Source of the DNA: Eledone cirrhosa
Taxonomy: Eukaryota
DNA: 64,000 nt
NCBI GenBank assembly: GCA_964016885.1
Contig: OZ024741.1
Coordinates: forward strand, 14,446,001-14,510,000
Reading direction: 5' to 3'
Shown: positions 8,634 to 48,577 of the stretch, piece by piece
Numbering within the stretch: position 1 is the stretch's first letter
Layout: each line of letters opens with the position of its first letter
Notes under the pieces: generated by a model
The model's input: only the letters and a program-made list of their open reading frames with translations
The model's database searches: none
What the model was told of the DNA's origin: nothing
Translations under genes and position numbers: made by a program

Positions 8634-8691
<58 letters not shown>

Positions 8692-8953
8692 TTTCTTTAT
8701 TAACCACAAGGGTTTACATAAAGTAGACATTAAGGACAGTGCAGGACAATGCAGGACGGTACAAATGGGCATTTCTGCGTGTAAAAAAAAACAAAAACAG
8801 AGGATGTAACAAAAATAACAATGAAAATAACAATGAAAAATTCCCCAATAGGGGGGAGACTTCGGAGGGACATTTGTGGAGAAAGCCCAGTAAAAAGCCA
8901 CAATGACCCTGACCACCAAGGCAAGTGCCCTCTCCCAGTTTTCCACCTTTAGT

Positions 8954-11900
8954 TTACAGATATATACTCAGAGTCGGCCCATTCACTCGGGCCATTCTTG
9001 CTTCTCTCACCCATCTTTCAACAAAATGCTGGGAAGAGAGCACTTCCTTCTCTACTCTGATTTTCCTTTTCAAATGAAATTTGAAAAAGTCAATCAGAGC
9101 ATCACCGAAGAGGTAAGTGCTCGTCTTCAGCCCTTTCAAACGTGTCCACCATACTATCTCTTTCGCCATGGCCACCAGACAGATAAAAACTGCCTGCCCT
9201 TCCCGGCTAAAGGAGGAGGGCGGGGCAATCCTCACGATAGACTCAGATGATAGCTGGATCCGTCCTAAACGCGACAGCAGGTGTTCGACATAAACCCACA
9301 AGTCAGCAATTTTCGGACACTGGACGAGTGCGTGCAGGACGGTTTCGTCGCCCTGCGCGCATCTCGGACATGCCCGGCTGACGGCACCTCCATGCCTGTA
9401 GAGTTTATCCCGAACTGGCAAGGCTCCTCGGTAGCACTGCCAGGCCAGAGATTTCTGGAAGTTGTCCATAGGCCCTGGCCCGAAAGTTCTTCCGAAGAGA
9501 TTGGCTAGTTGATTTTCGTCGACGCCTAGAGTTTCCCCAAGTACGTCGTCGCTCTTCCCCTCCACTAATCCTCTATAGAACGCCGAGGTGGAGTTTCCAC
9601 CGATCACATTGCCCGATTGGTCGAGGGCTGTGAGCGCCTGAAGACATTCCAGTCTCCAGGCGCTCCCTCTCGGTCTTCGCTTGACCCAGGACTGCAGCTC
9701 CGTCAAGGAAACGAGCTGGGGAAAAACGCGTCTAGCAAACGGCGACCACACCTGATCACCGTCGAGGAAGAGGTGGAGATGTCGTAGCCTGAGCGCGTGC
9801 CTGCGCATCATCAGCCACGGCATGCCCAGCCCTCCACGTAGCGGGTGTTGACAACAGATGGACCGCCTGACCATCGGAGCACGTCCCTTCCACAAAAAGC
9901 GAAAGAGCAAACGCTCCAGCGCAGTCAGGCGAGGCTTAGGACAAGGTACGACGGTTAGGCGGTAGCAGATGACAGACGCGATGTACGCGTTAGCCACCTC
10001 CGCTCGACCTTTCAGGGATAGCTTCCTCTCCGCCCATTTCTGGGTGAGAGAAGCCACCCTGCTCGTCACCTCGTCCCAGTTTTTGTCCGTCTGGAGGTCC
10101 GGACCGAACCAGACCCCTAGCAATTTAACCGGTCCGTCCGTCCAGCGCCCGACGACGCTGTTGGACGGCATGGACCTGCCTCTCCAGGTGCCGAGCTGCA
10201 GGCCCACTGACTTTTCCTGGTTGATCATTGCTCCTGTCACCGCTTCGTATTCTCTTAGTGTAGTGCCGATCGCCTCGATGTGTTTGGCGTTCGACACCAC
10301 TACGGTGACATCGTCCGCATATGCTGACACGGATCTTCCGCATCCTAGTTCGCGCGGGACTCCCCTCAACGTCTCCAGTTTGTGCAGTAATGGCTCGAGA
10401 GTCAATACGTACAAGAGGGACGAGAGGGGACATCCTTGGCGGACCGAGCGCATGATGTTGAACGGTTCCGACAGGTGACCGTTCACTCTCACCACAGAGC
10501 AGATGTCGCTGTGCATGGCAGCGATCCAGCCTCTGAAGACGGGCCCAAAGCCAGCCGCCCTCAGGACTGCCGCTAGGTAACGATGGTCGACCCTATCGAA
10601 AGCTTTCGACTGATCTAAATTGATCAAGGACCCACCCGTGCCAGGTTCCCTAGCTACCCTCTCTACGATGTATCGCATGAGGTGGAGGTTGTCGTGGATG
10701 GATCTGTCGGGAATGGCGCATGTCTGCGCCTCTCCCACCAGACCACCAACGACAAGCGCCAACCTCTTTGCTAGCACCTTGGCCAAAATCTTAAACTCTG
10801 TGTTTAGCAGAGTTATGGGCCGGAAATTGTCTATGTTATCCCCCTTGTTCGGATCCTTTCTCAGCAGTGCCACCGCTCCTCGGCTCACAGAACTGGGAAT
10901 TCTCCCGTTCTGTTGCCAGTTGCAGTAGACGTCCGCCAAGAGGCCTCCGAACAAGTCTGGCATCTGTACGTAAAGTTCATAGGGCAGACCATCCAAACCA
11001 GGCGATTTACCCCTTGTGCAGCCAGTCATTGCCTCCCGTACTTCAGCGGCTGTTATCGGCTTTTCGCAACACTTCGCCTCAGTGGCCGAGAGCCGCGGCA
11101 GTCCGTCGAGGTAGACACTAAAGTCCATCCCTCTACCCGGCCCCCCGCTGCCCCCGAACAGCTGAGCGAAGTGTCGCTGAAAAGCTTCACACATTTGCCC
11201 GGGATCGAGTAGCATGCGCCCGTCGTGGTCCACCAAAGACCGGATCGTGGCTTTGTTGCCACGACGCGCCTCCGCCACTCGGGCCCATTGAACGGCTTTC
11301 GTCCCCTCGTGTCTGAGAGCACGCACCCTAGCTCTGACAACGCAGCCTTCGTGCTTTGCATTGAAGAATTGGTCAAGGGCCAATTTCGCCGCAAGCACGT
11401 CGGTCGCAATGCCTTTGCTAAGCGCCTCGTCTAATTTTCTAACTAGTTCTCCCTCTGCTCTATTTTTCTCTATTGCTAAAGCCTTACTAAACCTAATCGA
11501 TTCTATTCTAATCGCTCTTTTCAGAGCAAACCACCACTTGTTGTTGACGATGGCCCCCGTCAACGCCCGCTTAACTAGTTCGCTAATCCGGTCTCTGTAG
11601 GCCTTGCGCGCTGGTAAGGACGCGTTTAGCTTCCAGTAGCCGGGTCCTCGTCTATGAAGCCTATCTAAGTCAAGCACACAGATCACGAATTTGTGGTCCG
11701 TGTAGCTGACTATCTTGAATTGTGGACAGCCTATGCTAGACCTATCTATTTCCCTACAAAATACTCTATCTAGATATGATCTGGATGACCCTATGCGGTT
11801 TGTCCAAGTCCACATTGGCACATTCGGGAAATCCAATCGGTACCTGTCAGACAGTTCAAAACGCCTGAGCAGGTTGGTGAGGCTCTTGCACCCTCCACCC

Positions 11901-12373
11901 CTATCCGCTAATCCCACACAGTCCCAGCGTGCATCTAAGATCCCGTTCCAGTCGCCCACTAACACTAAAGAGCGGGACGTTCCAAGAAAGGTCTCCAGAC
12001 GCCGGAAGAAATCAGGCCGCCCTGCTCCTGTCGGGGCATAGACGGCCACTAGCCTGAAAGCTTGCCCGTCTCCGCTGGTCACGTCCAGCACCACCAGCTT
12101 ACCCTCTGGGTCCAGGAAGATGGCCCGTATGGCGAGATCCAAACCTCTCCGAAAAAGCACAGCAACTCCTCCACCGGATCCAGGACGGCTGGGAGATGCG
12201 TACACATCGAAGCCGCCGAAGATCGGTGCGAAGGCCCGTGCTTCGGAGATTCTGGTCTCGCTGATGGCCACTACATCTATGTTTAGTGACCTGAGGTCGT
12301 TGAGCAGGTGACCCTGCTTCCATGACGACCCCAAGCCACGCGCATTTATGCTGCCTATTCTGAGTGAGGTCAT
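8954..12373 (-). CDS. Tx1 ORF2: APE endonuclease, reverse transcriptase, C-terminal zinc finger (1139 aa, intact)
   Basis: EN motifs SINARGL, ISETR, GDWN, YLDRVF, TDH. RT motifs KSPGLDG, RPITLLN, LDQSKAFDRV, QGCPLS, YADD. C-terminal CPRC..ETVLHALVQC. Confidence 0.97.
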   Translation of the reverse strand: MTSLRIGSINARGLGSSWKQGHLLNDLRSLNIDVVAISETRISEARAFAPIFGGFDVYASPSRPGSGGGVAVLFRRGLDLAIRAIFLDPEGKLVVLDVTSGDGQAFRLVAVYAPTGAGRPDFFRRLETFLGTSRSLVLVGDWNGILDARWDCVGLADRGGGCKSLTNLLRRFELSDRYRLDFPNVPMWTWTNRIGSSRSYLDRVFCREIDRSSIGCPQFKIVSYTDHKFVICVLDLDRLHRRGPGYWKLNASLPARKAYRDRISELVKRALTGAIVNNKWWFALKRAIRIESIRFSKALAIEKNRAEGELVRKLDEALSKGIATDVLAAKLALDQFFNAKHEGCVVRARVRALRHEGTKAVQWARVAEARRGNKATIRSLVDHDGRMLLDPGQMCEAFQRHFAQLFGGSGGPGRGMDFSVYLDGLPRLSATEAKCCEKPITAAEVREAMTGCTRGKSPGLDGLPYELYVQMPDLFGGLLADVYCNWQQNGRIPSSVSRGAVALLRKDPNKGDNIDNFRPITLLNTEFKILAKVLAKRLALVVGGLVGEAQTCAIPDRSIHDNLHLMRYIVERVAREPGTGGSLINLDQSKAFDRVDHRYLAAVLRAAGFGPVFRGWIAAMHSDICSVVRVNGHLSEPFNIMRSVRQGCPLSSLLYVLTLEPLLHKLETLRGVPRELGCGRSVSAYADDVTVVVSNAKHIEAIGTTLREYEAVTGAMINQEKSVGLQLGTWRGRSMPSNSVVGRWTDGPVKLLGVWFGPDLQTDKNWDEVTSRVASLTQKWAERKLSLKGRAEVANAYIASVICYRLTVVPCPKPRLTALERLLFRFLWKGRAPMVRRSICCQHPLRGGLGMPWLMMRRHALRLRHLHLFLDGDQVWSPFARRVFPQLVSLTELQSWVKRRPRGSAWRLECLQALTALDQSGNVIGGNSTSAFYRGLVEGKSDDVLGETLGVDENQLANLFGRTFGPGPMDNFQKSLAWQCYRGALPVRDKLYRHGGAVSRACPRCAQGDETVLHALVQCPKIADLWVYVEHLLSRLGRIQLSSESIVRIAPPSSFSREGQAVFICLVAMAKEIVWWTRLKGLKTSTYLFGDALIDFFKFHLKRKIRVEKEVLSSQHFVERWVREARMARVNGPTLSIYL

Positions 12374-12408
12374 GTTTAAAATAGAGTGGAAAAGATGGGA
12401 AAGACCAC

Positions 12409-14505
12409 TTACCGTACTTTTGGTAGAGGAGGGATGGTTTTTACATCCCTTTTCACTTGATCGTCTGGTGAAGGGACCGTTGAATCGTCCCTTCGGCTGG
12501 TCGTCGGCTCTTCTAAGAGAATGTCTGAGTATACTCTTCGATTGATGGTTCCTCCTAGGTCCCTGAAATCACCAACTGCGTTGGGGAATTTCGTTTTAAT
12601 ATTTGTGTATTGTTTCTGTGCTATTTTTAGCAGTCTTATGTTAGTTGGCGTTTTGATTGGTGCTGGTATTATGTAGTCCTGTTGTGAAATGTCTGTGTGT
12701 TCAATTATGTAAGTCATTAGTTTCTTGTTGTGTGTATTTATTGCCGTGCATTTGTTTTTCTGGGGGTGGGGTGTGGTTCTGCTATTTTCTTGTCGTTGTT
12801 GCTGGGTGTGTGTGTTTTGTTGTTGTGTTTGCGATGTTGGTGCTTGTGGTGGTGGTGTTGAAGGTGTTGTTGGCGGTGGGGTTGTCGCCGGTGGTGATGG
12901 TGGCGCTAGTGTGGGTGGTGATGGTGTTGGTGTTGTTGCTGCTGTGGGTCTCTTTGCAGTAGACTTTACCCTTTTCTCATTTCTTTCCTCACTTTTCAAA
13001 GGCGACGATGCGCTGCTTCTGCGTTTGTGCCTTCTTACGACCTTTTGCCATCTCTCTCCCACCTCACACTCCATGTCTGATTCTGTGAGGTCGGGGAGGG
13101 GTACCAACTCCACTCTTTCACTTGTTGTTGTTGGTGATGTTTGCACTGGAGTCTCTGTTGCAGCTGCATTTGGTATTGCTGTTGTTGTTGTTAGTATTTC
13201 CACTGCTGCTGCTGTTTTTGATTTCCGTGGAGTGGGTATGGGTGCCACGGGCCTATCGTTCCTGGTTGCCGCTTGTCCTGTTGCTGGTAGCCGTGGAGCC
13301 GGATTCGGAAGGAGGGGGGTTTTCTCCTTTCTCAGGGTCTTCTCGTTGCAGAAGGCCCTGAGGTGAGTCTTCGATCCACAGCGAAAGCATTTCGGGCGTT
13401 TGCCCTCAACACTTATGGGCAGTTGAGTGCCGTTATCGAAGTCTATCACATCCGGGATAGCTTCGATGCACTCCTGGTTGGTTTGGATTAGCATCTCAAT
13501 GGAGGAGCCGACCCAATCTTCTCTTACTTTTTTCTGTACTTGCAGTACAGTTGTTTTGTCCTCGATTCCGACGAGGACAGACGCGGCCAGCCAAGAAGGG
13601 GTCATTCCGGGGGGGACGTGGGTCAGTTTGACCCTCACAATTTTTTGCCCACAGTAGGAGGGCACCAACACCATTTCCTCGCTCCTTAGGGTCACTACTG
13701 ATTGGGCCTTTGCCTCCTGGGGTGTGGCAAAAAGTACGTCTACGGTGGCATATTTTTTGCCTCGGGTGATGTGCGTTTTCCGCTGCCACACAGACCCCAA
13801 GGCTTTTTGTATTTGGGCCTCTGTGGCTCTTTCCACCCTACGGGATTTTGTACTTACTGTACGGTACGTGACCGTACAGTGCTCTTGGGTTTCGAAAAAA
13901 TTTTTCGCTGCCTTGCAGATTGCTCGGTGTCGGTTCTTTGTCACCATCTTCTTCGCTTCCTCTAATTCCTCATTTGTTATGAGGATTGTTTCCAAATTTT
14001 TCGCAATACCTGCAAATGAGATTGGTTTTTCTCTGCTGTTGTTGTTGTCGTCAGAGCTGCTGGTACTTTTGTTGTTGCTGCAGGTACTACGACTACTGCC
14101 TCCGCCGCTGTTGCTGTGGTTGTTGTTGGTGTTGCTGCTGCTAATGCTGTTGTTGTTTATGCTACTGGTGATGCTGTTGCGGCTGCTACTGTTGTTTTCA
14201 TTGTCACTGTTGCTGTTGTTATTACGGCTGCTACTGCTATTATTCCTGACGTCAGACGAATGAACTGGGTTTTCGTATTTCCCGCACACCTGTTTCGTCG
14301 CTGTCGTCGTCGTCGTGGAGAAACCTTGCACGCTTTGCACGAGACTTTTCTTTTCTTTCGTCACTTGCGAAAGAGAAGGGAGGGAGAGAGACACATTTAA
14401 AGAAGGGAGGGAGAGAGACAATCTTCTCTCTGCTGTAGTGATGATTGAGGAAGAAGAAGACGGAATGAGTGGGAGTGACGTATGAAATTTCTTTTTGGTA
14501 GCCAT
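12409..14505 (-). CDS. Tx1 ORF1 type A (gag-like nucleic-acid-binding protein with zinc knuckle), ~698 aa from the first ATG
   Basis: Open frame with CX2CX4HX4C (CFRCGSKTHLRAFC) and low-complexity S/N and P/T tracts. It ends 35 nt before the ORF2 ATG. Confidence 0.9.
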   Translation of the reverse strand: MATKKKFHTSLPLIPSSSSSIITTAERRLSLSLPSLNVSLSLPSLSQVTKEKKSLVQSVQGFSTTTTTATKQVCGKYENPVHSSDVRNNSSSSRNNNSNSDNENNSSSRNSITSSINNNSISSSNTNNNHSNSGGGSSRSTCSNNKSTSSSDDNNNSREKPISFAGIAKNLETILITNEELEEAKKMVTKNRHRAICKAAKNFFETQEHCTVTYRTVSTKSRRVERATEAQIQKALGSVWQRKTHITRGKKYATVDVLFATPQEAKAQSVVTLRSEEMVLVPSYCGQKIVRVKLTHVPPGMTPSWLAASVLVGIEDKTTVLQVQKKVREDWVGSSIEMLIQTNQECIEAIPDVIDFDNGTQLPISVEGKRPKCFRCGSKTHLRAFCNEKTLRKEKTPLLPNPAPRLPATGQAATRNDRPVAPIPTPRKSKTAAAVEILTTTTAIPNAAATETPVQTSPTTTSERVELVPLPDLTESDMECEVGERWQKVVRRHKRRSSASSPLKSEERNEKRVKSTAKRPTAATTPTPSPPTLAPPSPPATTPPPTTPSTPPPQAPTSQTQQQNTHTQQQRQENSRTTPHPQKNKCTAINTHNKKLMTYIIEHTDISQQDYIIPAPIKTPTNIRLLKIAQKQYTNIKTKFPNAVGDFRDLGGTINRRVYSDILLEEPTTSRRDDSTVPSPDDQVKRDVKTIPPLPKVR

Positions 14506-14718
14506 GTTTTTTTTTTTAAAATGAAATTTTGGGTACAAAACCCCAATAACTGGTTATTTAACCCCGAAGGGCCAAATAACGGACAGAAAGACCCCTCTCA
14601 CGAGGAGGAGGGTGTCTTTATCAACAATTTGGTTCAAGTTTTAAACAATTTACAATTGTTTTAACGGTTAAAAATTACTATACCTTACAGAGCCGAGCCT
14701 CCGTCAACCATGGCATTC

Positions 14719-14760: not shown

Positions 14761-14762
<2 letters not shown>

Positions 14763-17700
14763 TTTCTTTATTAACCACAAGGGTTTACATAAAGTAGACA
14801 TTAAGGACAGTGCAGGACGGTACAAATGGGCATTTCTGCGTGTAAAAAACAAAAACAGAGGATGTAACAAAAAAATAACAATGAAAAATTCCCCAATAGG
14901 GGGGAGACTTCGGAGGGACATTTGTGGAGAAAGCCCAGTAAAAAGCCACAATGACCCTGACCACCAAGGCAAGTGCCCTCTCCCAGTTTTCCACCTTTAA
15001 TTTACAGATATATGCTCAGAGTAGGCCCATTCACTCGGTCCATTCTTGCTTCTCACACCCATCTTTCAACAAAATGCTGGGAAGAGAGCACTTCCCTCTC
15101 TACTCTGATTTTCCTTTTCAAATGAAATTTGAAAAAGTCAATCAGAGCATCACCGAAGAGGTAAGTGCTCGTCTTCAGCCCTTTCAAACGTGTCCACCAT
15201 ACTATCTCTTTCGCCATGGCCACCAGACAGATAAAAACTGCCTGCCCTTCCCGGCTAAAGGAGGAGGGCGGGGAAATCCTCACGATGGACTCAGATGATA
15301 GCCGGATCCGTCCTAAACGCGACAGCAGGTGTTCGACATAAACCCACAAGTCAGCAATTTTCGGACACTGGACGAGTGCGTGCAGGACGGTTTCGTCGCC
15401 CTGTGCGCATCTCGGACATGCCCGGCTGACGGCACCTCCATGCCTGTAGGGTTTATCCCGAACTGGCAAGGCTCCTCGGTAGCACTGCCAGGCCAGAGAT
15501 TTCTGGAAGTTGTCCATAGGCCCTGGCCCGAAAGTTCTTCCGAAGAGATTGGCTAGTTGATTTTCGTCGACGCCTAGAGTTTCCCCAAGTAGGTCGTCGC
15601 TCTTCCCCTTCACTAATCCTCTATAGAACGCCGAGGTGGAGTTTCCACCGATCACATTGCCCGATTGGTCGAGGGCTGTGAGCGTCTGAAGACATTCCAG
15701 TCTCCAGCCGCTCCCTCTCGGTCTTCGCTTGACCCAGGACTGCAGCTCCGTCAAAGAAACGAGCTGGGGAAATACGTGTCTAGCAAACGGCGACCACACC
15801 TGATCACCGTCGAGGAAGAGGTGGAGATATCGTAGCCTGAGCGCGTGCCTGCGCATCATCAGCCACGGCATGCCCAGCCCTCCACGTAGCGGGTGTTGAC
15901 AACAGATGGACCGCCTGACCATCGGAGCACGTCCCTTCCACAAAAAGCGAAAGAGCAAACGCTCCAGCGCAGTCAGGCGAGGCTTAAGACAAGGTACGAC
16001 GGTCAGGCGGTAGCAGATGACAGACGCGATCTACGCGTTAGCCACCTCCGCTCGATCTTTCAGGGATAGCTTCCTCTCCGCCTATTTCTGGGTGAGAGAA
16101 GCCACCCTGCTCGTCACCTCGTCCCAGTTTTTGTCCGTCTGGAGGTCCGGACCGAACCAGACCCCTAGCAATTTAACCGGTCCGTCCGTCCAGCGTCCGA
16201 CGACGCTGTTGGACGGCATGGACCTGCCTCTCCAGGTGCCGAGCTGCAGGCCCACTGACTTTTCCTGGTTGATCATTGCTCCTGTCACCGCTTCGTATTC
16301 TCTTAGTGTAGTGCCGATCGCCTCGATGTGTTTGGCGTTCGACACCACTACGGTGACATCGTCCGCATATGCTGACACGGATCTTCCGCATCCTAGTTCG
16401 CGCGGGACTCCCCTCAACGTCTCCAGTTTGTGCAGTAATGGCTCGAGAGTCAATACGTACAAGAGGGACGAGAGGGGACATCCTTGGCGGACCGAACGCA
16501 TGATGTTGAACGGTTCCGACAGGTGACCGTTCACTCTCACCACAGAGCAGATGTCGCTGTGCATGGCAGCGATCCAGCCTCTGAAGACGGGCCCAAAGCC
16601 AGCCGCCCTCAGGACTGCCGCTAGGTAACGATGGTCGACCCTATCGAAAGCTTTCGACTGATCTAAATTGATCAAGGACCCACCCGTGCCAGGTTCCTTA
16701 GCTACCCTCTCTATGATGTATCGCATGAGGTGGAGGTTGTCGTGGATGGATCTGTCGGTAATGGCGCATGTCTGCGCCTCTCCCACCAGACCACCAACGA
16801 CAAGCGCCAACCTCTTTGCTAGCACCTTGGCCAAAATCTTGAACTCTGTGTTTAGCAGAGTTATGGGCCTAAAATTATCTATGTTATCCGCCTTGTTCGG
16901 ATCCTTTCTCAGCAGCGCCACCGCTCCTCGGCTCACAGAGCTGGGAATTCTCCCGTTCTGTTGCCAGTTGCAGTAGACGTCCGCCAAGAGGCCTCCGAAC
17001 AAGTTTGGCCTTTGTACGTAAAGTTCATAGGGCAGACCATCCAAACCAGGCGATTTACCCCTTGTACATCTAGTCATTGCATCCCGTACTTCAGCGGTTG
17101 TTATTAGCTTTTCGCAACACTCCGCCTCAGTGGGCGAAAGCCGCGGCAGTCCGTCGAGGTAGACACTAAAGTCCATCCCTCGATCCGGCCCGCCAATGCC
17201 CCCGAACAGTTGAGCGAAGTGTCACTGAAAAGCTTCACACATTTGCCCGGGATCGAGTAGCATGCGCCCGTCGTGGTCCACCAAAGACCGGATCGTGGCT
17301 TTGTTGCCACGACGCGCCTCCGCCACTTCGGCCCATTGAATGGCTTTCGTCCCCTCGTGTCTGAGAGCACGCACCCTAGCTCTGACAACGCAGCCTTCGT
17401 GCTTTGCATTGAAGAATTGGTCAAGGGCCAATTTCGCCGCAAGCACGTCGGTCGCGATGCCTTTGCTAAGCGCCTCATCTAATTTTCTAACTAATTCTCC
17501 CTCTGCTCTATTTTTCTCTATTGCTAAAGTCTTACTAAACCTAATGGACTCTATTCTAATTGCTCTTTTCAGAGCAAACCACCACTTGTTGTTGACGATG
17601 GCCCCCGTCAACGCCCGCTTAACTAGTTCGCTAATCCGGTCTCTGTAGGCCTTACGCGCTGGTAAGGACTCGTTTAGCTTCCAGTAACCGGGTCCTCGTC

Positions 17701-20700
17701 TATGAAGCCTATCTAAGTCAAGCACACAGATCACGAATTTGTGGTCCGTGTAGCTGACTATCTTGAATTGTGGACAGCCTATGCTAGACCTATCTATTTC
17801 CCTACAAAATACTCTATCTAGATATGATCTGGATGACCCTATGCGATTTGTCCAAGTCCACATTGGTACATTCGGGAAATCCATTCGGTACTTGTCAGAC
17901 AGTTCAAAACGTCTGAGCAGGTTGGTGAGACTCTTGCACCCTCCTTCCCTATCCACTAATCCCACACAATCCCAGCGTGCATCTAAGATCCTGTTCCAGT
18001 CGCCCACTAACACTAAAGAGCGGGACGTTCCAAGAAAGGTCTCCAGACGCCGGAAGAAATCAGGCCGCCCTGCTCCTGTCGGGGCATAGACGGCCACTAA
18101 CCTGAAAGCTTGGCCGTCTCCGCTGGTCACGTCCAACACCACCAACTTACCTTCTGGGTCCAGGAAGATGGCCCGTATGGCAAGATCCAAACCTCTCCGA
18201 AAAAGCACAGCAACTCCACCCCCCCCGATCCCGGACGGCTGGGAGATGCGTACACATCGTAGCCGCCGAAGATCGGTGAGAAAACCTGTGCTTCGGAGAT
18301 TCTGGTCTCGCTGATGGCCACTACATCTATGTTTAGTGACCTGAGGTCGTTGAGCAGGTGGCCCTGCTTCCATGACGACCCCAAGCCACGCGCATTTATG
18401 CTGCCTATTCTGAGTGAGGTCATGTTGAAAAGGAGTGGAAAAGATGGGAAAGACCACTTACCTTACTTCTCGTAGGGGAAGGACGGTTTTTCCATCCTTT
18501 TCACTGCTTGTGGCCTCCTCAGGAAGGATGTCCTTATAAATCCTCCTGGAGAGTGCTTGTCGGAAGTCTCCGATGTCTTTGGGGATTTTTGTTTTAGTGT
18601 CATGTACGTTTTCTGTGTGATGCGAGTGATTTGTATGTGTGGAGGTGGTGTGAATTTTGGGGTTGTTGTGTAGTCTTTTTCTGTGATGCTGGTGTTGTGT
18701 TGCATGTAGTGCAATAATTGCTTGTTGTTCAAATTTAATTGTTTCTACTTTAGGCACAAGGCCAGCAATAACCCAGTGCATTACTGGTACTTTATTTTAT
18801 CGACCCCGTAAGGATGAAAGGCAAAGTCAACCTCGGCGGGATTTGAACTCAGATCGTAAAGGGACGTAACTATGCTGGAAAGCATGGCGTCCGACCTTCT
18901 ACCGATACTGCCAATCCACTGCCAATCCACCTGCCAATCCACCGCTTGTTGTTCAAATTTAATGCTGTGTAGTGTGTATCGTTTTGGTTGTTTTGTTTTG
19001 TTTGCGTTTGTTGTGAGTTTGTTTCTGTTTCGCATTTTGGTGACTTTTGTGGTGTAGATGATGGTGGTGCTGGGGTTAATGATGGTGATGGTGTTGGTGT
19101 TTGGGTTGATGGGGTTGGTGATGCTGGTGTGGATGGTGGCATATCTGTCCTAACTTTTTTGTTTCTTAATTTATTTGTTTCCCTCTGTATTTTGTTTTTG
19201 GAGGGGGAAGGAAGAGAATTTTTTCTTTTTTGGTTTCTTTTTTTTTTCCTGATACCGTTTCCCACTCCTCGTCGTCACAATCTGTCTCCAGTTGTGATAG
19301 GCCGGGGAGTGGAAAATCCTCCACAGCCGTTAGTTTTGGTTGTGGCGTGGTGGATGGTGTAGGCGCTGGTGCTAGTTCTGAAGCGTTGGGTGGTGGTGGT
19401 GTTGGTTTTGCTGGTGGTGGTGGTGGCGTTGGTTTTGCTACTGTTGCTGGGGTTGTTGCTGTTATAGCTGCTTCTGTTGTTGCTGCTACAGTTTTGGCTG
19501 CCATCTCTGCTACTGGTGGTGTTGATGGTTGTGTCACTGGGGTGGGTATGAGAGGTGGCCTCAACCTTTTAGCCTGAGGGCAGAAAGCCCTTAGGTGGGT
19601 TCCTTCACCACAAACGACACACCTAGGTCTTCTGCCCTCGACAATTACCGTGAGGTGGCTGCCGTCAGTGAGATCTATTACCTCTGGGATCTCCTCAATG
19701 CTTTTTTGGTCCGCTTGGATCAGGAGCTCCATCCCAGATCCGGACCAGTTTTCCTGCTTTTCTTTTGCTACTGCTATTATTTTCGTGTTGGCTTCGATGC
19801 CGGCGAGGACGGCCGCTATTAGCCAGGGAATTTCGATGGCCGGTGGAACGTGGGTCACCCTGATCTTTACGAGTCTCTGGCCACAATAGCTTGGGACGAG
19901 TGTGAAGTCGTCACTTTTTAATGGGGCCATGGAGTGTTCTCTAGCCTCCTCTGGTGTTTCAAAGAACACGTCCACGGTTCCATACTTTTGCCCACGTCTG
20001 ATGTGGGTTTTTCTTGCCCACACATGTCCCAAAGCTTTTTGGATTTGGGACTCGGATGCCCGTTCCACTCGGCGCGATTTTACATTTATTGTTCTATACG
20101 ACACGGTGCATAGGCGCCGATGCTCCATTTTATTAGGTGGGGGGGGGGTGAGGCTGACCCTGTACCCATCTTTCTTTACCATTTGTTTGGCATTTGCTAA
20201 ATCCTCCTGAGTTACCGTACAAGCTTCGAATTGTTTTGCTACTCTGGCGAAACTGAGGGTCGGTTTTATAATGTCATTGTTGTTGTTGTTGCTATCGTTA
20301 ATATTAATTTTAGTTTCAGTTGTGGTGGTGGTGACGTCAGTCGTCTTTGGTGGGGAAGAGTCCATTTTGCTTGATTTCATTTCGACATCACGAGTTAATT
20401 TATTTTTTTCTTCTTTTGTTTCTGTTGTCGCGGTGGTGGTGGTGGTGGAGGCTTTAACACCTGCAGTCATTGGTAATGGCGGGAAATGAATGTCTGCCTG
20501 AGACAAATTTAAAATATTGCTACTGCTTATATTTTTTTTGTGTTGGCAAACGCAGTAACATTTACAATGGTGGTGTCGGTGTGAGGTGTTAATTTGTGAG
20601 GAAGGCTTTCAGCTGCTTGTTGCAGAGGTGAATTAGCCATTATTTTCAAAGAAATTTTTTGATAATAATAAAAGTTTAAATTTTGGGCACAAGGCCCCAA

Positions 20701-20847
20701 TCTTTTTGGGTGTCCTTTTCGGAAAACAATGTATGTGCGCTTATAAACAGTTAACAATAAAATTTTCCATAAATGACAATTTTTAACAAACGGAAATAAC
20801 AAACCTTTGCGGAGCTCACGATGATACGATTTACTACGTAGGTCGCC
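14761..20847 (-). mobile_element. Full-length Tx1 copy 2 (5' module type B), inactivated; SINE inserted in ORF1
   Basis: ORF2 (~15002-18423) has stops at 15053, 16082 and 17222 plus a G-run frameshift at ~18220. ORF1 (18458-20640) is interrupted by a SINE and A-run frameshifts. Flanked by (AAT)n. Confidence 0.95.
18740..18943 (-). mobile_element. SINE-A inserted in Tx1 ORF1 with a 20-bp target-site duplication
   Basis: TSD gcttgttgttcaaatttaat at 18720-18739 and 18944-18963. A single empty site is present in copy 4 at 46117-46136. Confidence 0.95.
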
Positions 20848-24967
<4,120 letters not shown>

Positions 24968-24992: not shown

Positions 24993-25080
24993 ATTGTTTC
25001 TACTTTAGGCACAACGCCAGCAATTACCCAGTGTATTACTGGTACTTTATTTTATCGACCCCGTTAGGATGAAAGGCAAA
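24993..25080 (-). mobile_element. 5'-truncated SINE-A fragment within (AAT)n
   Basis: attgtttctactttaggcacaacgccagcaatta...ggatgaaaggcaaa. Confidence 0.85.
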
Positions 25081-25094: not shown

Positions 25095-26435
25095 GCTTTC
25101 TTTATTAACCACATAAGTTTACATAAAGTAGACATTAAGGACAATACAGGACGGTATAAATGGGCATTTCTGCGTGTAAAAAACAAAAACAGAGGGTGTA
25201 ACAAAAAAATTACAATGAAAAACTCCCCAATACGGGGGAGACTTCCGAGGGACATTCGTGGACAAAGCCCATTAAGAAGCCACAGTGACCCTGACCACCA
25301 GGTCAAGTGCCCTCTACCAGTTTTCCACCTTTAATTTACAAACACATACTCAGAGTAGGCCCATTCACTTGGGCCATTCTTGCCTCTCTCACCCATCTTT
25401 CAACAAAATGCTGGGAAGAGAGCACTTCCCTCTCTACCCTGATTTTCCTTTTCAAATGAAATTTGAAAAAGTTAATCAGGGCATCACCGAAGAGGTAAGT
25501 GCTCGTCTTCAGCCCTTTCAAACGTGTCCACCATACTATCTCTTTCGCCATGACCACCAGACAGATAAAAACTGCCTACCCTTCCCGGCTAAAGGAAGAG
25601 GGCGGAGCAATCCTCACGATGGACTCAGCTGATAGCTGGATCCGTCCTACACACGACAGCAGGTGTTCGACATAAACCCACAAGTCAGCAACGCTCGGAC
25701 ACTGGACGAGTGCGTGCAGGACGGTTTCGTCGCCCTGCGCGCATCTCGGACATGCCCGGCTGACGGCACCTCCATACCTGTAGAGTTTATCCCGAACTGG
25801 CAAAGCTCCTCTGTAGCACTGCCAGGCCAGGGATTTCTGGAAGTTGTCCATAGGCCACGGCCCGAAAGTCCTTCCGAAGAGATTCGCTAGTTCATTTTCG
25901 TCGAAGCCTAGAGGTTCCCCAAGTACGTCGCCGCTCTTCCCCTCCACTAATCCTCTATAGAACGCCAAGGTGGAGTTTTCACCGATCACATTGCCCGATT
26001 GGTCGAGGGCTGTGAGCGCCTGAAGACATTCCAGTCTCCAAGCGCCCCCTCTCGGTCTTCGCTTGACCCAGGACTGCAGCTCCGTCAAGGAGACGAACTG
26101 GGGAAAGACGCGTCTAGCAAACGGCGACCACACCTGATCACCGTTGAGGAAGAGGTGGAGATGTCGTAGCCTGAGCGCGTGTCTGCGCATCGTCAGCCAC
26201 GGCATGCCCAGCGCTCCACGTAGCGGGTGTTGACAGCAGATGGACCGCCTGACCATCGGAGCGCGTCCCTTTAAAAAAAAACGAAAGAGCAAACGCTCCA
26301 GCGCAGTCAGGCGGGGCTTAGGACAAGGTACGACGGTCAGGCGGTAGTAGGTGACGAACGCGATGTACGCGTTACCCACCTCCGCTCGACCTTTCAGGGA
26401 TAGCTTCCTCTCCGCCCATCTCTGGGTGAGAGAAG
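25095..26435 (-). mobile_element. 5'-truncated Tx1 copy 3 (3' ~1.3 kb)
   Basis: Homologous to the ORF2 C-terminus and 3' UTR of copy 1; internal stop at 25576. Confidence 0.93.
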
Positions 26436-29802: not shown

Positions 29803-29841
29803 TATATTGTTGTTGTTATTGCCATTGTTTATATTATTATT

Positions 29842-30030
29842 GGTGGATTGGCAGTATCAGTAGAGGGTCGGACGCCATGCTTTGCAGCAAGGAGTTACGG
29901 CCCTTTATGGTCTGAGTTCAAATCCCGCCGAGGTTAGCTTTGCCTTTCATCCTTACGAGGTCGATAAAATAAAGTACCAGTAATACACTGGAATAATTGC
30001 TGGCCTTGTGCCAAAAGTAGAAACAATTAT
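29842..30030 (+). mobile_element. SINE-A copy in an (ATT)n context
   Basis: Head, core and tail are all present; flanked by attattatt. Confidence 0.88.
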
Positions 30031-33859: not shown

Positions 33860-34044
33860 AATTGTTTCTACTTTAGGCACAAGGCCAGCAATTACCCAGT
33901 GCATTACTGGTACTTTATTTTATCGACCCCGTAAGGATGAAAGGCAAAGTCAACCTCGGCGGGATTTGAACTCAGATCGTAAAGGGACGTAACTATGCTG
34001 GAAAGCATGGCGTCCGACCCTCTACCGATACTGCCAATCCACCA
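33860..34044 (-). mobile_element. SINE-A copy, nearly identical to the 18740-18943 copy
   Basis: Shares the subfamily segment gatcgtaaagggacgtaactatgctggaaagc. Confidence 0.9.
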
Positions 34045-40741: not shown

Positions 40742-40893
40742 TGATTTCTACTATAGGCACAAGGCCAGCCATTACCTCAGTGCATTACTGGTACTTTATT
40801 TTATCGACCCCGTAAGGATGAAAGGCAAAGTTAACCTCGGCGGGATTTGAACTCAGACCATAATGGGCTGTAACTCTTTGCTGCCAATCCACC
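40742..40893 (-). mobile_element. SINE-A copy in (AAT)n whose tail ends AGAAATC(ATT)n
   Basis: atgatttctactataggcacaaggccagc...ctgccaatccaccg. Confidence 0.88.
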
Positions 40894-41223: not shown

Positions 41224-42120
41224 GGGGACAGTAGGCCAGGGGATGTCCAAGGAGGAAATAACATCAAGGAGGAAGAGCAGCCTTAAGGGAAAATCCCTTC
41301 ATAGTACCTTCTTTGAGAAAACTGAATTTAGAGATCCACAGACATGGAACTGGTTGAGAAGAGGAGACCTCAAAAAGGCTACAGAAGGAATGCTAATGGC
41401 TGCGCAGGAGCAGGCCCTCAAAACGAAGTGGTTGAAGCACCATATTTACAAGGAGGAGGCTAACCCACTGTGCAGGATCTGTGGAGAGAGAGAGGAGACT
41501 GTGGCTCACATTGTGTCCGAGTGTAAACACCTAGCCCAGACCCACTGTAAGGGCTGGAGACACGATGTGATGGGCAGGGTGATCCACTGGCACCTGTGCA
41601 AAGTAAACAATTTACCACATTCTGAGAAATGGTATGAGCATAGGCCAGAGGCGGTGATGGAGAACAATCAGGTGAAGGTGCTGTGGGATTTTAGGATACA
41701 GACGGACAAAAAACTAGAACACAATAGACCTGACCCGGTGGTTGTGGACAAAGAAAAAAGATCGTGTCTGATTGTAGATGTGGCCTGCCCTTTCGACACG
41801 AGAGTGCAAGAGAAGGAGAGGGAGAAAATTAACCGATACCAGGACCTAAAGTGGGAGGTGAAAAGGATTTGGAACTGCCATGAAGTCAAAGTGATCCCGA
41901 TTGTCATAGGCGCACTGGGGACTATCTCCAAAAGTTTCCAGGGATGGTTAAAGAAAATCGGCCCCTTCACGCTTTTTGGAACGCTTCAAAAGGCATGCTT
42001 GCTTGGAACAGCAAGAACCCTCGGATACGTCCTGAATATCTGAGGCTGCAGATAGTGGCTTGATATTCATTCCAACGGACTTTCCAGTTAACCAACATCA
42101 ATGACTGAGATTCAAGGAAT
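41224..42120 (+). mobile_element. 5'-truncated R4/Dong family b element (CCHC + restriction-like endonuclease)
   Basis: ORF 41243-42043: TEGMLMAAQEQ, CRIC..ETVAHIVSEC..RHD, LWDF, RPD..IVDVACP..KINRYQDL. Ends in an (AAT)n tail. Confidence 0.92.
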
Positions 42121-42156: not shown

Positions 42157-42157
<1 letters not shown>

Positions 42158-45100
42158 TTTTCTTTATTAACCACAAGGGTTCACATAAAGTAGACATTAA
42201 GGACAGTACAGGACAATACAGGACGGTACAAATGGGCATTTCTGCGTGTATAAAATCAGAGGTTGAAATAAAATAACAAAGAAAAATTCCCCAATAGGGG
42301 GGAGACTTCCAAGGGACATTTGTGGAGAAAGCCCATTAAAAGACCACAGTGGCCCTGACCACCAGCGCAAGTGCCCTCTCCCAGTTTTCCACCTTTAATT
42401 TACAGACACATACTCAGAGAAGGCCCATTCATTCGGGCCATACTTGCTTCTCTCACCCATCTTTCAACAAAATGCTGGGAAGAGAGCACTTCCCTCTCTA
42501 CCCTGATTTTCCTTTTCAAATGAAATTTGAAAAAGTTAATCAGGGCATCACGGAAGAGGTAAGTGCTCGTCTTCAGCCCTTTCAAACGTGTCCACCATAC
42601 TATCTCTTTCGCCATGGCCACCAGACAGATAAAAACTGCCTGCCCTTCCAGGCTAAAGGAAGGGGGCGGGGCAATCCTCACGATGGACTCAGCTGATAGC
42701 TGGATCCGTCCTACACGTGACAGCAGGTGTTCGACATAAACCCACAAGTCAGCAATGCTCGGACACTGGACGAGTGCGTGCAGGACGGTTTCGTCGCCCT
42801 GCGCGCATCTCGGACATGCCCGGCTGACGGCACCTCCATGCCTGTAGAGTTTATCCCGAACTGGCAAAGCTCCTCGGTAGCACTGCCAGGCCAGGGATTT
42901 CTGGAAGTTGTCCATAGGCCCCGGCCCGAAAGTCCTTCCGAAGAGATTGGCTAGTTGATTTTCGTCGACGCCAAGAGTTTCTCCAAGTACGTCGTCGCTC
43001 TTCCCCTCCACTAATCCCCTATAGAACGCCAAGGTGGAGTTTCCACCGATCACATTGCCCGATTGGTCGAGGGCTGTGAGCGCCTGAAGACATTCCAGTC
43101 TCCAAGCGCTCCCTCTCGGTCTTCGCTTGACCCAGGACTGCAGCTCCGTCAAGGAGACGAGCTGGGGAAAAACGTGTCTTGCAAACGGCGACCACACCTG
43201 ATCACCGTCGAGGAAGAGGTGGAGATGTCGTAGCCTGAGCGCGTGTCTGCGCATCATCAGCCACGGCATGCCCAGCCCTCCACGTAGCGGGTGTTGACAG
43301 CAGATGGACCGCCTGACCATCGGAGCGCGTCCCTTCCACAAGAAGCGAAAGAGCAAACGCTCCAGCGCAGTCAGGCGGGCCTTAGTACAAGGTACGACGG
43401 TCAGGCGGTAGTAGATGACGGATGCGATGTACGCATTCGCCACCTCCGCTCGACCTTTCAGGGATAGCTTCCTCTCGGCCCATTTCTGGGTGAGAGAAGC
43501 CACCCTGCTCGTCACCTCGTCCCAGTTTTTGTCCGTCTGGAGGTCTGGACCGAACCAGACCCCTAGCAATTTAACCGGTCCGTCCGTCCAGCGCCCGACG
43601 ACGCTGTTGGACGGCATCGACCTGCCTCTCCAGGTGCCGAGCTGCAGGCCCACTGACTTTTCCTGGTTGATCATTGCTCCTGTCTCCGCTTCGTATTCTC
43701 TTAGTGTAGTGCCGATCGCCTCGATGTGTTTGGCGTTCGACACCACTACGGTGACATCGTCGGCATATGCTGACACGGATCTTCCGCATCCTAGTTCGCG
43801 CGGGACTCCCCTCAACGTCTACAGTTTGTGCAGTAATGGCTCGAGAGTCAATACGTACAATAGGGACGAGAGGGGACATCCTTGGCGGACCGAGCGCATG
43901 ATGTTGAACGGTTCCGAAAGGTGACCGTTCACTCTCACTACAGAGCAGATGTCGCTGTGCATGGGAGCGATCCAGCCTCTGAAGACGGGCCCAAAGCCAG
44001 CCGCCCTCAGGACTGCCGCTAGGTAACGATGGTCGACCCTATCGAAGGCTTTCGACTGATCTAAATTGATCAAAGACCCACCCGTGCCAGGTTCGCTAGC
44101 TACCCTCTCTACGATGTATCGCATGAGGTGGAGGTTGTCGTGGATGGATCTGTCGGGAATGGCGCATGTCTGTGCCTCTCCCACCAGACCACCAACGACA
44201 AGCGCCAACCTCTTTGCTAGCACCTTGGCCAAAATCTTGAACTCTGTGTTTAGCAGAGTTATGGGCCTAAAATTATCTATGTTATCCCCCTTGTTCGGAT
44301 CCTTTCTCAGCAGCGCCACCGCTCCTCGGCTCACAGAGCTGGGAATTCTCCCGTTCTGTTGCCAGTTGCAGTAGACGTCCGCCAAGAGGCCTCCGAACAA
44401 GTTTGGCATTTGTACGTAAAGTTCATAGGGCAGACCATCCAAACCAGGCGATTTACCCCTTGTGCAACTAGTCATTGCATCCCGTACTTCAGCGGTCGTT
44501 ATCAGCTTTTCGCAACACTCCGCCTCAGTGGCCGAAAGCCGCGGCAGTCCGTCGAGGTAGACACTAAAGTCCATCCCTCGATCCGGCCCGCCACTGCCCC
44601 CGAACAGTTGAGCGAAGTGTCGCTGAAAAGCTTCACACATTTGCCCGGGATCGAGTAGCATGCGCCCGTCGTGGTCCACCAAAGACCGGATCGTGGCTTT
44701 GTTGCCACGACGCGCCTCCGCCACTCGGGCCCATTGAACGGCTTTCGTCCCCTCGTGTCTGAGAGCACGCACCCTAGCTCTGACAACGCAGCCTTCGTGC
44801 TTTGCATTGAAGAATTGGTCAAGGGCCAATTTCGCCGCAAGTACGTCGGTTGCGATGCCTTTGCTAAGCGCCTCATCTAATTTTCTAACTAATTCTCCCT
44901 CTGCTCTATTTTTCTCTATTGCTAAAGTCTTACTAAACCTAATGGACTCTATTCTAATTGCTCTTTTCAGAGCAAACCACCACTTGTTGTTGACGATGGC
45001 CCCCGTCAACGCCCGCTTAACTAGTTCGCTAATCCGGTCTCTGTAGGCCTTGCGCGCTGGTAAGGACTCGTTTAGCTTCCAGTAGCCGGGTCCTCGTCTA

Positions 45101-48040
45101 TGAAGCCTATCTAAGTCAAGCACACAGATCACGAATTTGTGGTCTGTGTAGCTGACTATCTTGAATTGTGGACAGCCTATGCTAGACCTATCTCTTTCCC
45201 TACAAAATACTCTATCTAGATATGATCTGGATGACCCTATGCGATTTGTCCAAGTCCACATTGGTACATTCGGGAAATCCATTCGGTACCTGTCAGACAG
45301 TTCAAAACGTCTGAGCAGGTTGGTGAGACTCTTGCACCCTCCTTCCCTATCCACTAATCCCACACAATCCCAGCGTGAATCTAAGATCCCGTTCCAGTCG
45401 CCCACTAACACTAAAGAGCGGGACGTTCCAAGAAAGGTCTCCAGACGCCGGAAGAAATCAGGCCGCCCTGCTCCTGTCGGGGCATAGACGGCCACTAACC
45501 TGAAAGCTTGGCCGTCTCCGCTGGTCACGTCCAACACCACCAACTTACCTTCTGGGTCCAGGAAGATGGCCCGTATGGCAAGATCCAAACCTCTCCGAAA
45601 AAGCACAGCAACTCCACCCCCCGATCCCGGACGGCTGGGAGATGCGTACACATCGTAGCCGCCGAAGATCGGTGCGAAAACCTGCGCTTCGGAGATTCTG
45701 GTCTCGCTGATGGCCACTACATCTATGTTTAGTGACCTGAGGTCGTTGAGCAGGTGGCCCTGCTTCCATGACGACCCCAAGCCACGCGCATTTATGCTGC
45801 CTATTCTGAGTGAGGTCATGTTGAAAAGGAGTGGAAAAGATGGGAAAGACCACTTACCTTACTTCTCGTAGGGGAAGGACGGTTTTTCCATCCTTTTCAC
45901 TGCTTGTGGCCTCCTCAGGAAGGATGTCCTTATAAATCCTCCTGGAGAGTGCTTGTCGGAAGTCTCGGATGTCTTTGTTGAATTTTTGTTTTAGTGTCAT
46001 GTACGTTTTCTGTGTGATGCGAGTGATCTGTATGTGTGGAGGTGGTGTGAATTTTGGGGTTGTTGTGTAGTCTTTTCCTGTGATGCTGGTGTTGTGTTGG
46101 ATGTAGTGTAATAATTGCTTGTTGTTCAAATTTAATGCTGTGTAGTGTGTATCGTTTTGGTTGTTTTGTTTTGTTTGCGTTTGTTGTGGGTTTGTTTCTG
46201 TTTCGCATTTTGGTGACTTTTGTGGTGTAGGTGATGGTGGTGCTGGGGTTAATGATGGTGATGGTGTTGGTGTTTGGGTTGATGGGGTTGGTGATGCTGG
46301 TGTGGATGGTGGCATATCTGTCCTAACTTTTTTGTTTCTTAATTTATTTGTTTCCCTCTGTATTTTGTTTTTGGAGGGGGAAGGAAGAGAATTTTTTCTT
46401 TTTTGGTTTCTTTTTTTTTTCCGGATATCGTTTCCCACTCCTCGTCGTCACAATCTGTCTCCAGTTGTGATAGGCCGGGGAGTGGAAAATCCTCCTCAGC
46501 CGTTAGTTTTCGTTGTGGCGTGGTGGATGGTGTAGGCGCTGGTGCTAGTTCTGAAGCGTTGGGTGGTGGTGGTGTTGGTTTTGCTGGTGGTGGTGGTGGC
46601 TTTGGTTTTGCTACTGTTGCTGGGGTTGTTGCTGTTATAGTTGCTTCTGTTGTTGCTGCTACAGTTTTTGCTGCCATCTCTGCTACTGGTGGTGTTGATG
46701 GTTGTGTCACTGGGGTGGGTAGGAGAGGTGGCCTCAACCTTTTAGCCTGAGGGCAGAAAGCCCTTAGGTGGGTTCCTTCACCACAAACGACACACCTAGG
46801 TCTTCTGCCCTCGACAATTACCGTGAGGTGGCTGCCGTCAGTGAGATCTATTACCTCAGGGATCTCCTCAATGCTTTTTTGGTCCGCTTGGATCAGGAGC
46901 TCCATCCCAGATCCGGACCAGTTTTCCTGCTTTTCTTTTGCTACTGCTATTATTTTCGTGTTGGCTTCGATGCCGGCGGGGACGGCCGCTATTAGCCAGG
47001 GAATTTCGATGGCCGGTGGAACGTGGGTCACCCTGATCTTTACGAGTCTCTGGCCACAATAGCTTGGGACGAGTGTGAAGTCGTCACTTTTTAATGGGGC
47101 CATGGAGTGTTCTCTAGCCTCCTTTGGTGTTTCAAAGAACACGTCCACGGTTCCATACTTTTGCCCACGTCTGATGTGGGTTTTTCTTGCCCACACATGT
47201 CCCAAAGCTTTTTGGATTTGGGACTCGGATGCCCGTTCCACTCGGCGCGATTTTACATTTATTGTTCTATACGACACGGTGCATAGGCGCCGATGCTCCA
47301 TTTTATTAGGTGGGGGGGGGGGGTGAGGCTGACCCTGTACCCATCTTTCTTTACCATTTGTTTGGCATTTGCTAAATCCTCCTGAGTTACCGTACAAGCT
47401 TCGAATTGTTTTGCTACTCTGGCGAAACTGAGGGTCGGTTTTATAATGTCATTGTTGTTGTTGTTGCTATCGTTAATATTAATTTTAGTTTCAGTTGTGG
47501 TGGTGGTGACGTCAGTCGTCTTTGGTGGGGAAGAGTCCATTTTGCTTGATTTCATTTCGACATCACGAGTTAATTTATTTTTTTCTTCTTTTGTTTCTGT
47601 TGTCGCGGTGGTGGTGGTGGTGGTGGTTGTCGCCCTGGTGGTGGTGGAGGCTTTAACACCTGCAGTCATTGGTAATGGCGGGAAATGAATGTCTGCCTGA
47701 GACAAATTTAAAATATTGCTACTGCTTATATTTTTTTTTGTGTTGGCAAACGTAGTAACATTTACAATGGTGGTGTCGGTGTGAGGTGTTAATTTGTGAG
47801 GAAGGCTTTCAGCTGCTTGTTGCAGAGGTGAATTAGCCATTTTTTTCAAAGAAATTTTTTGATAATAATAAAAGTTTAAATTTTGGGCCCCAATCTTTTT
47901 GGGTGTCCTTTTCGGAAAACAATGTATGTGCTCTTATAAACAGTTAACAATAAAATTTTCCATAAATGACAATTTTTAACAAACGGAAATAACAAACCTT
48001 TGCGGAGCTCACGATGATACGATTTACTACGTAGGTCGCC
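42157..48040 (-). mobile_element. Full-length Tx1 copy 4 (5' module type B)
   Basis: ORF2 42400-45819 has a single internal TAG at 43819. ORF1 45854-47840 has two homopolymer frameshifts (~46415, ~47315). Flanked by (AAT)n. Confidence 0.95.

Positions 48041-48575: not shown

Positions 48576-48577
<2 letters not shown>

Follow-up and report, generated by a model that had tools for sequence, protein, structure and literature searches.

Mammalian L1 retrotransposons read poly(A) tails. Two kinds of system close to the one described here are already known, namely SINEs moved by Tx1 elements, as described for SINEU, and stringent plant L1/SINE pairs. Mobilization of the crocodilian SINEU by Tx1 was inferred from their common target, for which the SINE has a weaker preference than the LINE (Kojima, 2015; PMC4494074). 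According to the accessible text of two surveys, only three L1-tailed SINEs are on record, in maize and Chlamydomonas, and the pairs are ZmSINE2/3 of maize and sorghum with LINE1-1_ZM and SINEX-3_CR of Chlamydomonas with L1-1_CR (Ohshima, 2012, PMC3472496; Ohshima, 2013, PMC3747384); no Tx1 pair is among the 58 pairs in Table 1 of PMC3747384. In UnaL2/UnaSINE1 and ZfL2-1/ZfL2-2, which belong to another clade, a 3′ stem-loop stands just before a short tandem repeat and has the role that we propose here. There, assays demonstrated the need for the stem-loop and its binding by the region between endonuclease and reverse transcriptase (RT) (Hayashi, 2014; PMC4176376).

The pair analysed here, from the octopod Eledone cirrhosa, resembles SINEU and Tx1-Mar in that a SINE appears to be moved by Tx1 and is laxer in its target preference than the LINE. 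As far as the published description goes, SINEU combines U1/U2 heads with poly(A) tails, and for the 3′ half of SINEU-1 no matching LINE was found (PMC4494074), whereas our SINE has a tRNA-like head, no poly(A) and a 3′ end homologous to that of Tx1. Like ZmSINE2/3–LINE1-1_ZM and SINEX-3_CR–L1-1_CR, it combines an L1-superfamily LINE and a SINE with a common 3′ end, and the monocot pair also has, in its published outline, a hairpin with a variable stem and a conserved loop and 3′ flank. The plant and algal pairs are described as involving plant L1 lineages and ~50–80 nt of common sequence; here, in contrast, the LINE belongs to an animal Tx1 lineage with microsatellite targets, and ~30 nt with a 3-bp stem are common. 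Microsatellite-specific Tx1 families include Kibi in (TC)n, Koshi in (TTC)n and crocodilian families in (TTCC)n or (TTTC)n (PMC4494074). The families studied here likewise have two ORFs, an APE-RT architecture and strand-specific microsatellite insertion, as far as those families are described, and differ from Kibi and Koshi in targeting (ATT)n (A, B and C) and (ATCT)n (D and E). For Kibi, Koshi and the crocodilian families, we found neither a SINE partner nor a 3′ hairpin in the accessible description in PMC4494074, and our literature search, outside which lay Repbase, subscription papers, figures and supplements, found no prior Tx1/SINE pair with a common 3′ hairpin.

Ohshima and Okada reportedly described the tRNA-derived octopus SINEs OK, OR1 and OR2 in 1994. 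These and the MetaSINEs (PMC4824008) are described as having, like our SINE, a tRNA-like head followed by a conserved centre. In the consulted parts of PMC4824008, PMC4758252, PMC11481361, PMC5786205, PMC3531059, PMC8967140 and PMC13282606, no octopus SINE is assigned a Tx1 partner.

Tx1 elements and SINE copies of the window

The window, by which we mean the whole stretch of 64,000 nucleotides under analysis, corresponds to C2:14,446,001–14,510,000 in a 3.0-Gb assembly, and its features are collected in Table 1. Among named sequences, one from Argonauta is closest to its large ORF (73%). Copies 1 and 2 of the Tx1 element referred to as Tx1-A are arranged head to tail, and in copy 1 the open frame of ORF2 extends over 8954–12568, with its first Met at 12373. 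Pfam domains of Tx1-A ORF2 are Exo_endo_phos, RVT_1 and zf-RVT; the protein matches an alligator "transposon TX1 uncharacterized 149 kDa protein" at 41%, and its best solved structure is human L1 ORF2p. In a FastTree analysis of RT sequences that contained one named Tx1 and no vertebrate L1, Tx1-A and the alligator TX1 protein formed one clade (support 97), apart from the CR1, RTE and Dong elements of the same genome as Tx1-A. A Pfam search of ORF1 gave no match; the protein contains CX2CX4HX4C, a putative zinc knuckle. The last 214 amino acids of Tx1-A are identical in at least 150 genome copies, many with full-length open frames, and family A is therefore very young and intact. Two different 5′ UTR/ORF1 fronts stand on a nearly identical ORF2 in Tx1-A (14718 versus 20847 and 48040, minus strand), with the switch near position 2260 of copy 1. 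A third front, of B type, is also found behind Tx1-A copies in arrays (sampled loci L043, L142 and L151).

Further Tx1 families, at 60–80% protein identity, were found in 40 evenly spaced 10-kb stretches (400 kb) and 20 chosen stretches. The 3′ hairpins are AACC-CTTGT-GGTT in family A, AGCC-CTTGT-GGCY in C and GGCC-CTKGT-GGCY in B, all three ending in (ATT)n, and YGCC-YTRGT-GGCA in D and YGCC-CYTGT-GGCT in E, both ending in (ATCT)n; AAUAAA follows the hairpin in every family. Pairwise identity is 82–95% among sampled C copies and 83–89% among B copies. Families D and E form one clade (support 100); in the RT tree, B is their sister (99) and A is sister to C (94), so that ATT is likely the older target. 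The (ATCT)n-targeting sister clade is young, makes 15–19-bp duplications and bears the same 3′ hairpin (L077, L080, L082, L086, L096 and L074).

The SINE, of ~185 bp, consists of a tRNA-like head, a central part and a Tx1-like tail. A 20-nt string from its tail has 177,604 exact matches in the genome, corresponding to at least that many copies, and the SINE covers 9,140 of 400,000 sampled bases, or ~2% of the genome. We assign GTTCAAATCC as its putative B box and TGGCAGTATCGG as A-box-like, and its centre may resemble the 66-bp Meta domain. ARAGORN and Rfam found no tRNA or other match in the SINE. Its size, copy number, boxes and duplications indicate that it is probably tRNA-derived, and it would then be transcribed by RNA polymerase III. 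Searching by the body alone found 119 copies, 110 with the tail and nine without; 85 of the tailed copies are of a short form, with a median of 95% to the query body, and 25 of an older, long form with ~30 additional bases ahead of the hairpin. Young SINEs are present, since eight full-length copies out of 50 match a neighbour at ≥98%.

Table 1. Positions of Tx1, SINE and neighbouring elements in the window.
Feature	Position	Strand	Details
Tract behind Tx1-A copy 1	8636..8689	-	(ATT)18, target/tail tract
Tx1-A copy 1	8690..14718	-	Full-length, type-1 5′ UTR, (ATT)n on either side
Copy 1 terminus	8690..8701	-	AATAAA + GAAATC; poly(A) absent after it
Copy 1 3′ hairpin	8702..8714	-	AACC-CTTGT-GGTT
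Copy 1 ORF2	8954..12373	-	APE endonuclease, reverse transcriptase, zf-RVT
Copy 1 ORF1	12409..14505	-	CX2CX4HX4C knuckle (presumed)
Tx1 5′ UTR hairpins	20685..20697, 14530..14545	-	Also at sampled loci L106, L107 and L081
Tx1-A copy 2	14761..20847	-	Type-2 5′ UTR and ORF1, SINE-interrupted
SINE in Tx1-A copy 2	18739..18919	-	Full-length, same orientation as copy 2
Copy 2 second hairpin	20685..20697	-	In 5′ UTR, GGGC-CTTGT-GCCC
R4/Dong-like LINE	21066..24860	+	(AAT)n tail = ATT target on opposite strand; context, not partner
SINE	24994..25080	-	5′-truncated, directly behind (ATT)5 tail of truncated Tx1-A
Tx1-A	25095..26435	-	5′-truncated, decayed hairpin AACT-TATGT-GGTT
SINE	29841..30026	+	Full-length, in ATT tract, hairpin TGGC-CTTGT-GCCA
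SINE, reference	33862..34044	-	Full-length short form, B box GTTCAAATCC (presumed), central domain, Tx1-like tail
Reference SINE hairpin	33875..33887		TGGC-CTTGT-GCCT
SINE	40743..40890	-	End AGAAATC(ATT)4, (ATT)20 before it
Second R4/Dong-like family	41225..42117	+	3′ part; Tx1-A copy 3 antiparallel in its tail; context
Tx1-A copy 3	42157..48040	-	Type-2 5′ UTR, hairpin loop deleted
Tx1-A	48576..49409	-	5′-truncated
Tx1 family B fragment	49558..49934	-	Hairpin GGCC-CTGGT-GGCT, spacer +1 base
SINE	58318..58499	+	Full-length, in ATT tract

The common tail and the insertion footprint

The original prediction had read a Tx1 end as AACC-CTTGT-GGTT-AATAA-AGAAATC-(ATT)n, a SINE end as TGGC-CTTGT-GCC(A/T)-AAAGT-AGAAACA, a SINE at 40742 as ending in AGAAATC(ATT)n and a divergent Tx1 at 49558 as having GGCC-CTGGT-GGCT. 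All four are as written: the Tx1 end is found on the minus strand at 8714–8690, followed by (ATT)18, and the 40742 copy closes with (ATT)4. The polarity of the SINEs at 24993, 40742, 29842 and 58313 does follow that of Tx1, as it had stated, and the SINE, ranked there as the most abundant of the window, is its commonest dispersed short repeat, with 19 matches. The supposedly identical CCTTGTG-N8-AGAAA spacing holds between the SINE and Tx1-A, but the spacer is 1–2 nt longer in family D and in family B, the 49558 copy among the latter.

Across the genome, CCTTGTG-N8-AGAAA-NN-(ATT)4 has 30,320 matches and the reversed pattern none; by eye, 66 of 100 listed matches are SINE-type, 27 Tx1-A-type and seven of other Tx1 types. 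When the last 30 nt of four SINE copies were compared with six Tx1 families, z was 3.0–6.0 against shuffles (p ≤ 0.006), so that the SINE end is alike to all six Tx1 families tested and to none of seven CR1, Dong or RTE ends (z ≤ 1.9 over the same length). Over 50 nt, one copy of the long SINE reached z 3.2 with a Dong end and z 2.2 with an RTE end, which did not recur over 30 nt and which we take as noise among 104 comparisons. Tx1-A gives the weakest match to the SINE tail (16–18 of 30 positions, versus 19–20 of 30 for C and E2). In 1.13 Mb, 135 of 140 SINE-type tails have a SINE body upstream, and the other five belong to truncated or deleted SINEs.

A search for a LINE that matches the SINE tail over a greater length, which had been proposed along with the original prediction, found none in the ~1.1 Mb screened or by genome-wide pattern searches. 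Genome-wide, the SINE-type stem with AATAAA gave one match to a strict pattern and 15 to a loose one, none of them a LINE; 13 of the 15 loose matches are SINE copies and two are unrelated DNA. No Tx1 3′ end with a SINE-type stem was thus found by these patterns, which demanded AATAAA and would let a rare partner lacking it escape.

Sixteen of 50 full-length SINE copies have a non-simple target site duplication of 13–22 bp (median 17), and 15 of these 16 duplications start with ATTAT, as against 0.3% in shuffled flanks; of the remaining full-length copies, 11 lie in pure ATT repeats and 23 lack a duplication. For Tx1-A, 211 ends have a short ATT junction, and we considered 40 of them, the ATTAT start being set by the search; 16 of the 40 have duplications of at least 8 bp, 13 of them 11–20 bp long. 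All 31 of the Tx1-A 5′ ends listed are preceded by (ATT)n. SINE heads follow (ATT)4 in 2,508 cases (overlaps counted), (AAT)4 in 29 and (ATCT)3 in five, while tracts of ATCT are no rarer than tracts of ATT (26 versus 19 in 400 kb); with five heads only after (ATCT)3, we rejected the ATCT-targeting Tx1 families as current movers of the SINE. The SINE target is laxer than that of Tx1-A, given 2,508 (ATT)4-preceded heads among at least 177,604 copies: the SINE sits mostly at bare ATTAT and Tx1-A in long tracts. Poly(A) follows none of 98 Tx1 ends and none of 136 SINE ends.

Among 24 loci of a CR1 family that also ends in (ATT)n, 15 have no duplication at the 5′ junction, one has a 6-bp match and eight are tandem 3′ UTR units, and the CR1 copies lack ATT-rich 5′ flanks. 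In a scan blind to family over the evenly spaced 400 kb, six of seven duplications starting with ATTAT flank an insert that ends in the hairpin. Elsewhere, the same scan gave 14 rows, of which three duplicates were merged and one was judged by eye, and ten of 11 distinct ATTAT duplications flank a hairpin-bearing insert.

Insertions of Tx1-A just 26–28 bp long, made up of hairpin and terminus alone, occur at sampled loci L136, L160 and L166, with a 20-bp duplication at L160. The CR1 family often has tandem repeats of its last ~112 bp between short ATT/GTT runs (L167–L190), which suggests template slippage at the 3′ end.

The predicted 3′ hairpin and its counterpart in the Tx1 5′ UTR

We compared 19 natural ends spanning the families (13 Tx1 and six SINE). 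The three inner pairs are intact in all 19: 2-12 occurs as G-C or A-U, 3-11 as C-G in Tx1 but as G-C in the SINE, and 4-10 is invariant. The outer pair has four types and is unpaired in seven of the 19 ends, and among SINE copies T.T takes its place in 29 of the 85 short and in 22 of the 25 long ones; since it is so often broken, we count the conserved stem as 3 bp. Covariation scored 0.46, above all 500 shuffles (0.16) and all six slid registers (≤0.14), although the shuffle ignores kinship, and RNAalifold predicted the same three pairs. The independent changes number about four, one at 2-12, one at 3-11, where the SINE differs from all Tx1, and about two at the outer pair. The original prediction of a conserved loop on a compensatory stem gains some support among the Tx1 families and from the single SINE/Tx1 swap at 3-11, but the loop varies across Tx1 (CTTGT, CTGGT, CTAGT, CCTGT and TTGGT), the outermost pair is often broken, the events are few, with none inside the SINE, and predicted pairing in the SINE is weak.

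Within the SINE, 100 listed variants included no compensated one and no subfamily with the Tx1-type C-G pair. SINE subfamilies vary in the spacer and the outer pair, with no common variant in the inner stem, loop or AGAAA. A pair-breaking variant at position 3 has 759 matches versus 177,604 (0.4% of SINE copies), which is about what mutation after insertion would give. In predicted folds, the hairpin is the best structure in five of five Tx1 ends, with pairing of 0.4–0.9. The core of the SINE RNA has predicted pairing of 0.03–0.47, apart from a value of 0.65 that the long form reached only in the shortest context; forcing the hairpin costs 1.5–2.2 kcal/mol above the best fold, and other stems compete, among them CCAGUAAU/AUUGCUGG.

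A SINE-type hairpin also occurs in a Tx1 5′ UTR, which is new here. The type-2 5′ UTR of Tx1-A has GGGC-CTTGT-GCCC ~55 nt ahead of the ORF1 start, followed by AAAATTTAAAC, with SINE-like AAAC, and a short ATT run. Its 11-nt core is that of the SINE hairpin, and it matches the SINE tail at z 5.0–5.2, as well as any 3′ end does, which clouds the origin of the SINE tail. Of 11 complete type-2 copies listed, four have the loop CTTGA and one has the loop deleted. The type-1 5′ UTR has GGGT-TTTGT-RCCC, and in families B and C the hairpin at this place is G/C-rich and has the loop TTTT or TTTAC; the 5′ UTR hairpin is thus general, and a loop identical to that of the 3′ end was seen in family A only. 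This twin may derive from capture of a SINE end, may serve as a second site for binding or may have arisen by chance. A G/C-rich hairpin with a U-rich loop ~30–60 nt before ORF1 was seen in five of five Tx1 5′ UTR types examined.

Probable mobilization of the SINE by Tx1, and neighbouring repeats

The homologous tails, the length of the duplications, ATTAT as target, the strand of insertion and the lack of poly(A) make it very probable that the SINE is mobilized by the Tx1 clade: the tail matches, the footprint is the same, and the CR1 family with an (ATT)n end makes no duplications. The original prediction held that this Tx1 lineage recognizes a 3′ hairpin and drives the SINE. Mobilization by the clade is well supported and hairpin recognition plausible, and "this lineage" fits the ATT-targeting Tx1 group better than family A of the window, the active candidate, which has the weakest tail match. 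Today's mover is likely family A, and hairpin-dependent (stringent) recognition by it is plausible enough for us to lean towards it.

The ORF2 protein of an ATT-targeting Tx1, likely family A today, would then copy the SINE in trans. In place of poly(A), it would recognize the predicted 3-bp hairpin with its CUUGU loop and the AGAAA behind it. An older Tx1 whose stem was NGCC-CUUGU-GGCN may have been the source of the SINE tail, in which one C-G pair was then exchanged for G-C and AAUAAA disappeared. ORF2p would bind the hairpin and nick the strand opposite ATTAT, reverse transcription would be primed on AUUAU just behind AGAAA-NN, and a second nick ~17 bp away would produce the duplication. 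The commoner short SINE arose from the long one by an internal deletion of ~30 bp, after which no more than the last ~33 nt of the tail remained, and these ~33 nt set the bounds of the cis element.

Tx1 might also move the SINE by way of the linear CCUUGUG ... AGAAA and pairing of the AUUAU end of the RNA with the nicked target, the hairpin being an inherited relic in the SINE that functions in Tx1 RNA, for example in 3′ processing beside AAUAAA. The low predicted pairing in SINE RNA with its competing stem CCAGUAAU/AUUGCUGG, the absence of covariation within the SINE and the AAUAAA behind the hairpin of every Tx1 family all suit a linear signal. Such a signal leaves unaccounted for that the SINE stem departs from that of families D/E only by a double transversion, which affects two positions that pair with each other, and that the inner stem is unbroken in every SINE subfamily although spacer variants are common; we regard it as possible, but distinctly less likely than hairpin recognition. 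The closer likeness of the SINE tail to C and E2 than to A, together with a laxer target than that of A, could instead point to an older C-, B- or E-like Tx1 as source of the tail and real partner, with the young SINEs made by a less abundant ATT-targeting Tx1 other than A. Copies of C (82–95%) and B (83–89%) look older than the youngest SINEs, however; D and E are young but target ATCT, which the SINE shuns, and the genome-wide patterns including AATAAA found no Tx1 family with the SINE stem, so we hold this to be unlikely.

A LINE of another clade, whether CR1 with (ATT)n, Dong-R4, RTE or an unseen family, is a very unlikely mover, with the likeness to Tx1 then being old or coincidental. One CR1 family does have a 3′ hairpin and a terminal (ATT)n of the same strand, the usual SINE partners in molluscs are CR1, L2 and Nimb as far as the consulted accounts go (PMC4824008, PMC11481361), and our partner screen covered ~1.1 Mb plus pattern searches. 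The three named candidates were nonetheless rejected: CR1 lacks both the duplications and ATT-rich 5′ flanks, Dong-R4 ends in (AAT)n, the wrong repeat strand, RTE elements end in (GAT)n or (AT)n, and none of the seven CR1, Dong and RTE ends compared fits the tail; the SINE-type tails in 1.13 Mb follow a SINE body or belong to truncated or deleted SINEs. A more far-reaching version of hairpin recognition seems rather unlikely to us. In it, the signal, a YYNGU loop on a stem of 3 bp common to all octopod Tx1 families, would be the smallest of its kind known and would be read by an animal L1-superfamily enzyme of the stringent type irrespective of the DNA target. It would be read twice on Tx1-A RNA, at the 3′ end, to start reverse transcription, and at the 5′ UTR twin before ORF1, which would have the loop CUUGU or UUUGU closed by C-G, U-A or U.G and would be mimicked by the SINE stem.

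Mobilization by Tx1 names a likely carrier for a SINE that fills ~2% of the genome. If the hairpin is needed, Tx1 would represent a stringent L1-superfamily element in animals and would speak for the view of Ohshima that the L1 clade started out with strict recognition of 3′ ends and that the reading of poly(A) in mammals is a later development. The question lends itself to direct testing, as Tx1-A is intact and very young and the candidate signal has 13 nt, and sister families with the same hairpin and ATT or ATCT targets offer a natural separation of RNA choice from DNA choice.

Several other arrangements were observed around these elements. Two R4/Dong-like families with (AAT)n ends are present (plus strand of the window, Table 1, and sampled loci L103 and L113), and Tx1 and SINE copies enter their tails antiparallel, giving mixed head-to-tail stacks. 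A 13-bp tandem array of 87 copies at 26464–27590 abuts the 5′ break of the truncated Tx1-A at 25095..26435. An inverted repeat pair, at 56545–56721 (minus) and 58182–58560 (plus), ends in (ATT)n and has a motif, TGATGAG...CGAAAC, that we presume to be reminiscent of a hammerhead ribozyme; the plus copy has a SINE within its ATT tract. Runs of four to seven near-identical full-length Tx1-A copies, at C1:441,098,534–441,135,798 and C2:188,055,473–188,080,453, have a spacing of ~6.05 kb and the same short junction, and could reflect tandem insertion, amplification or assembly.
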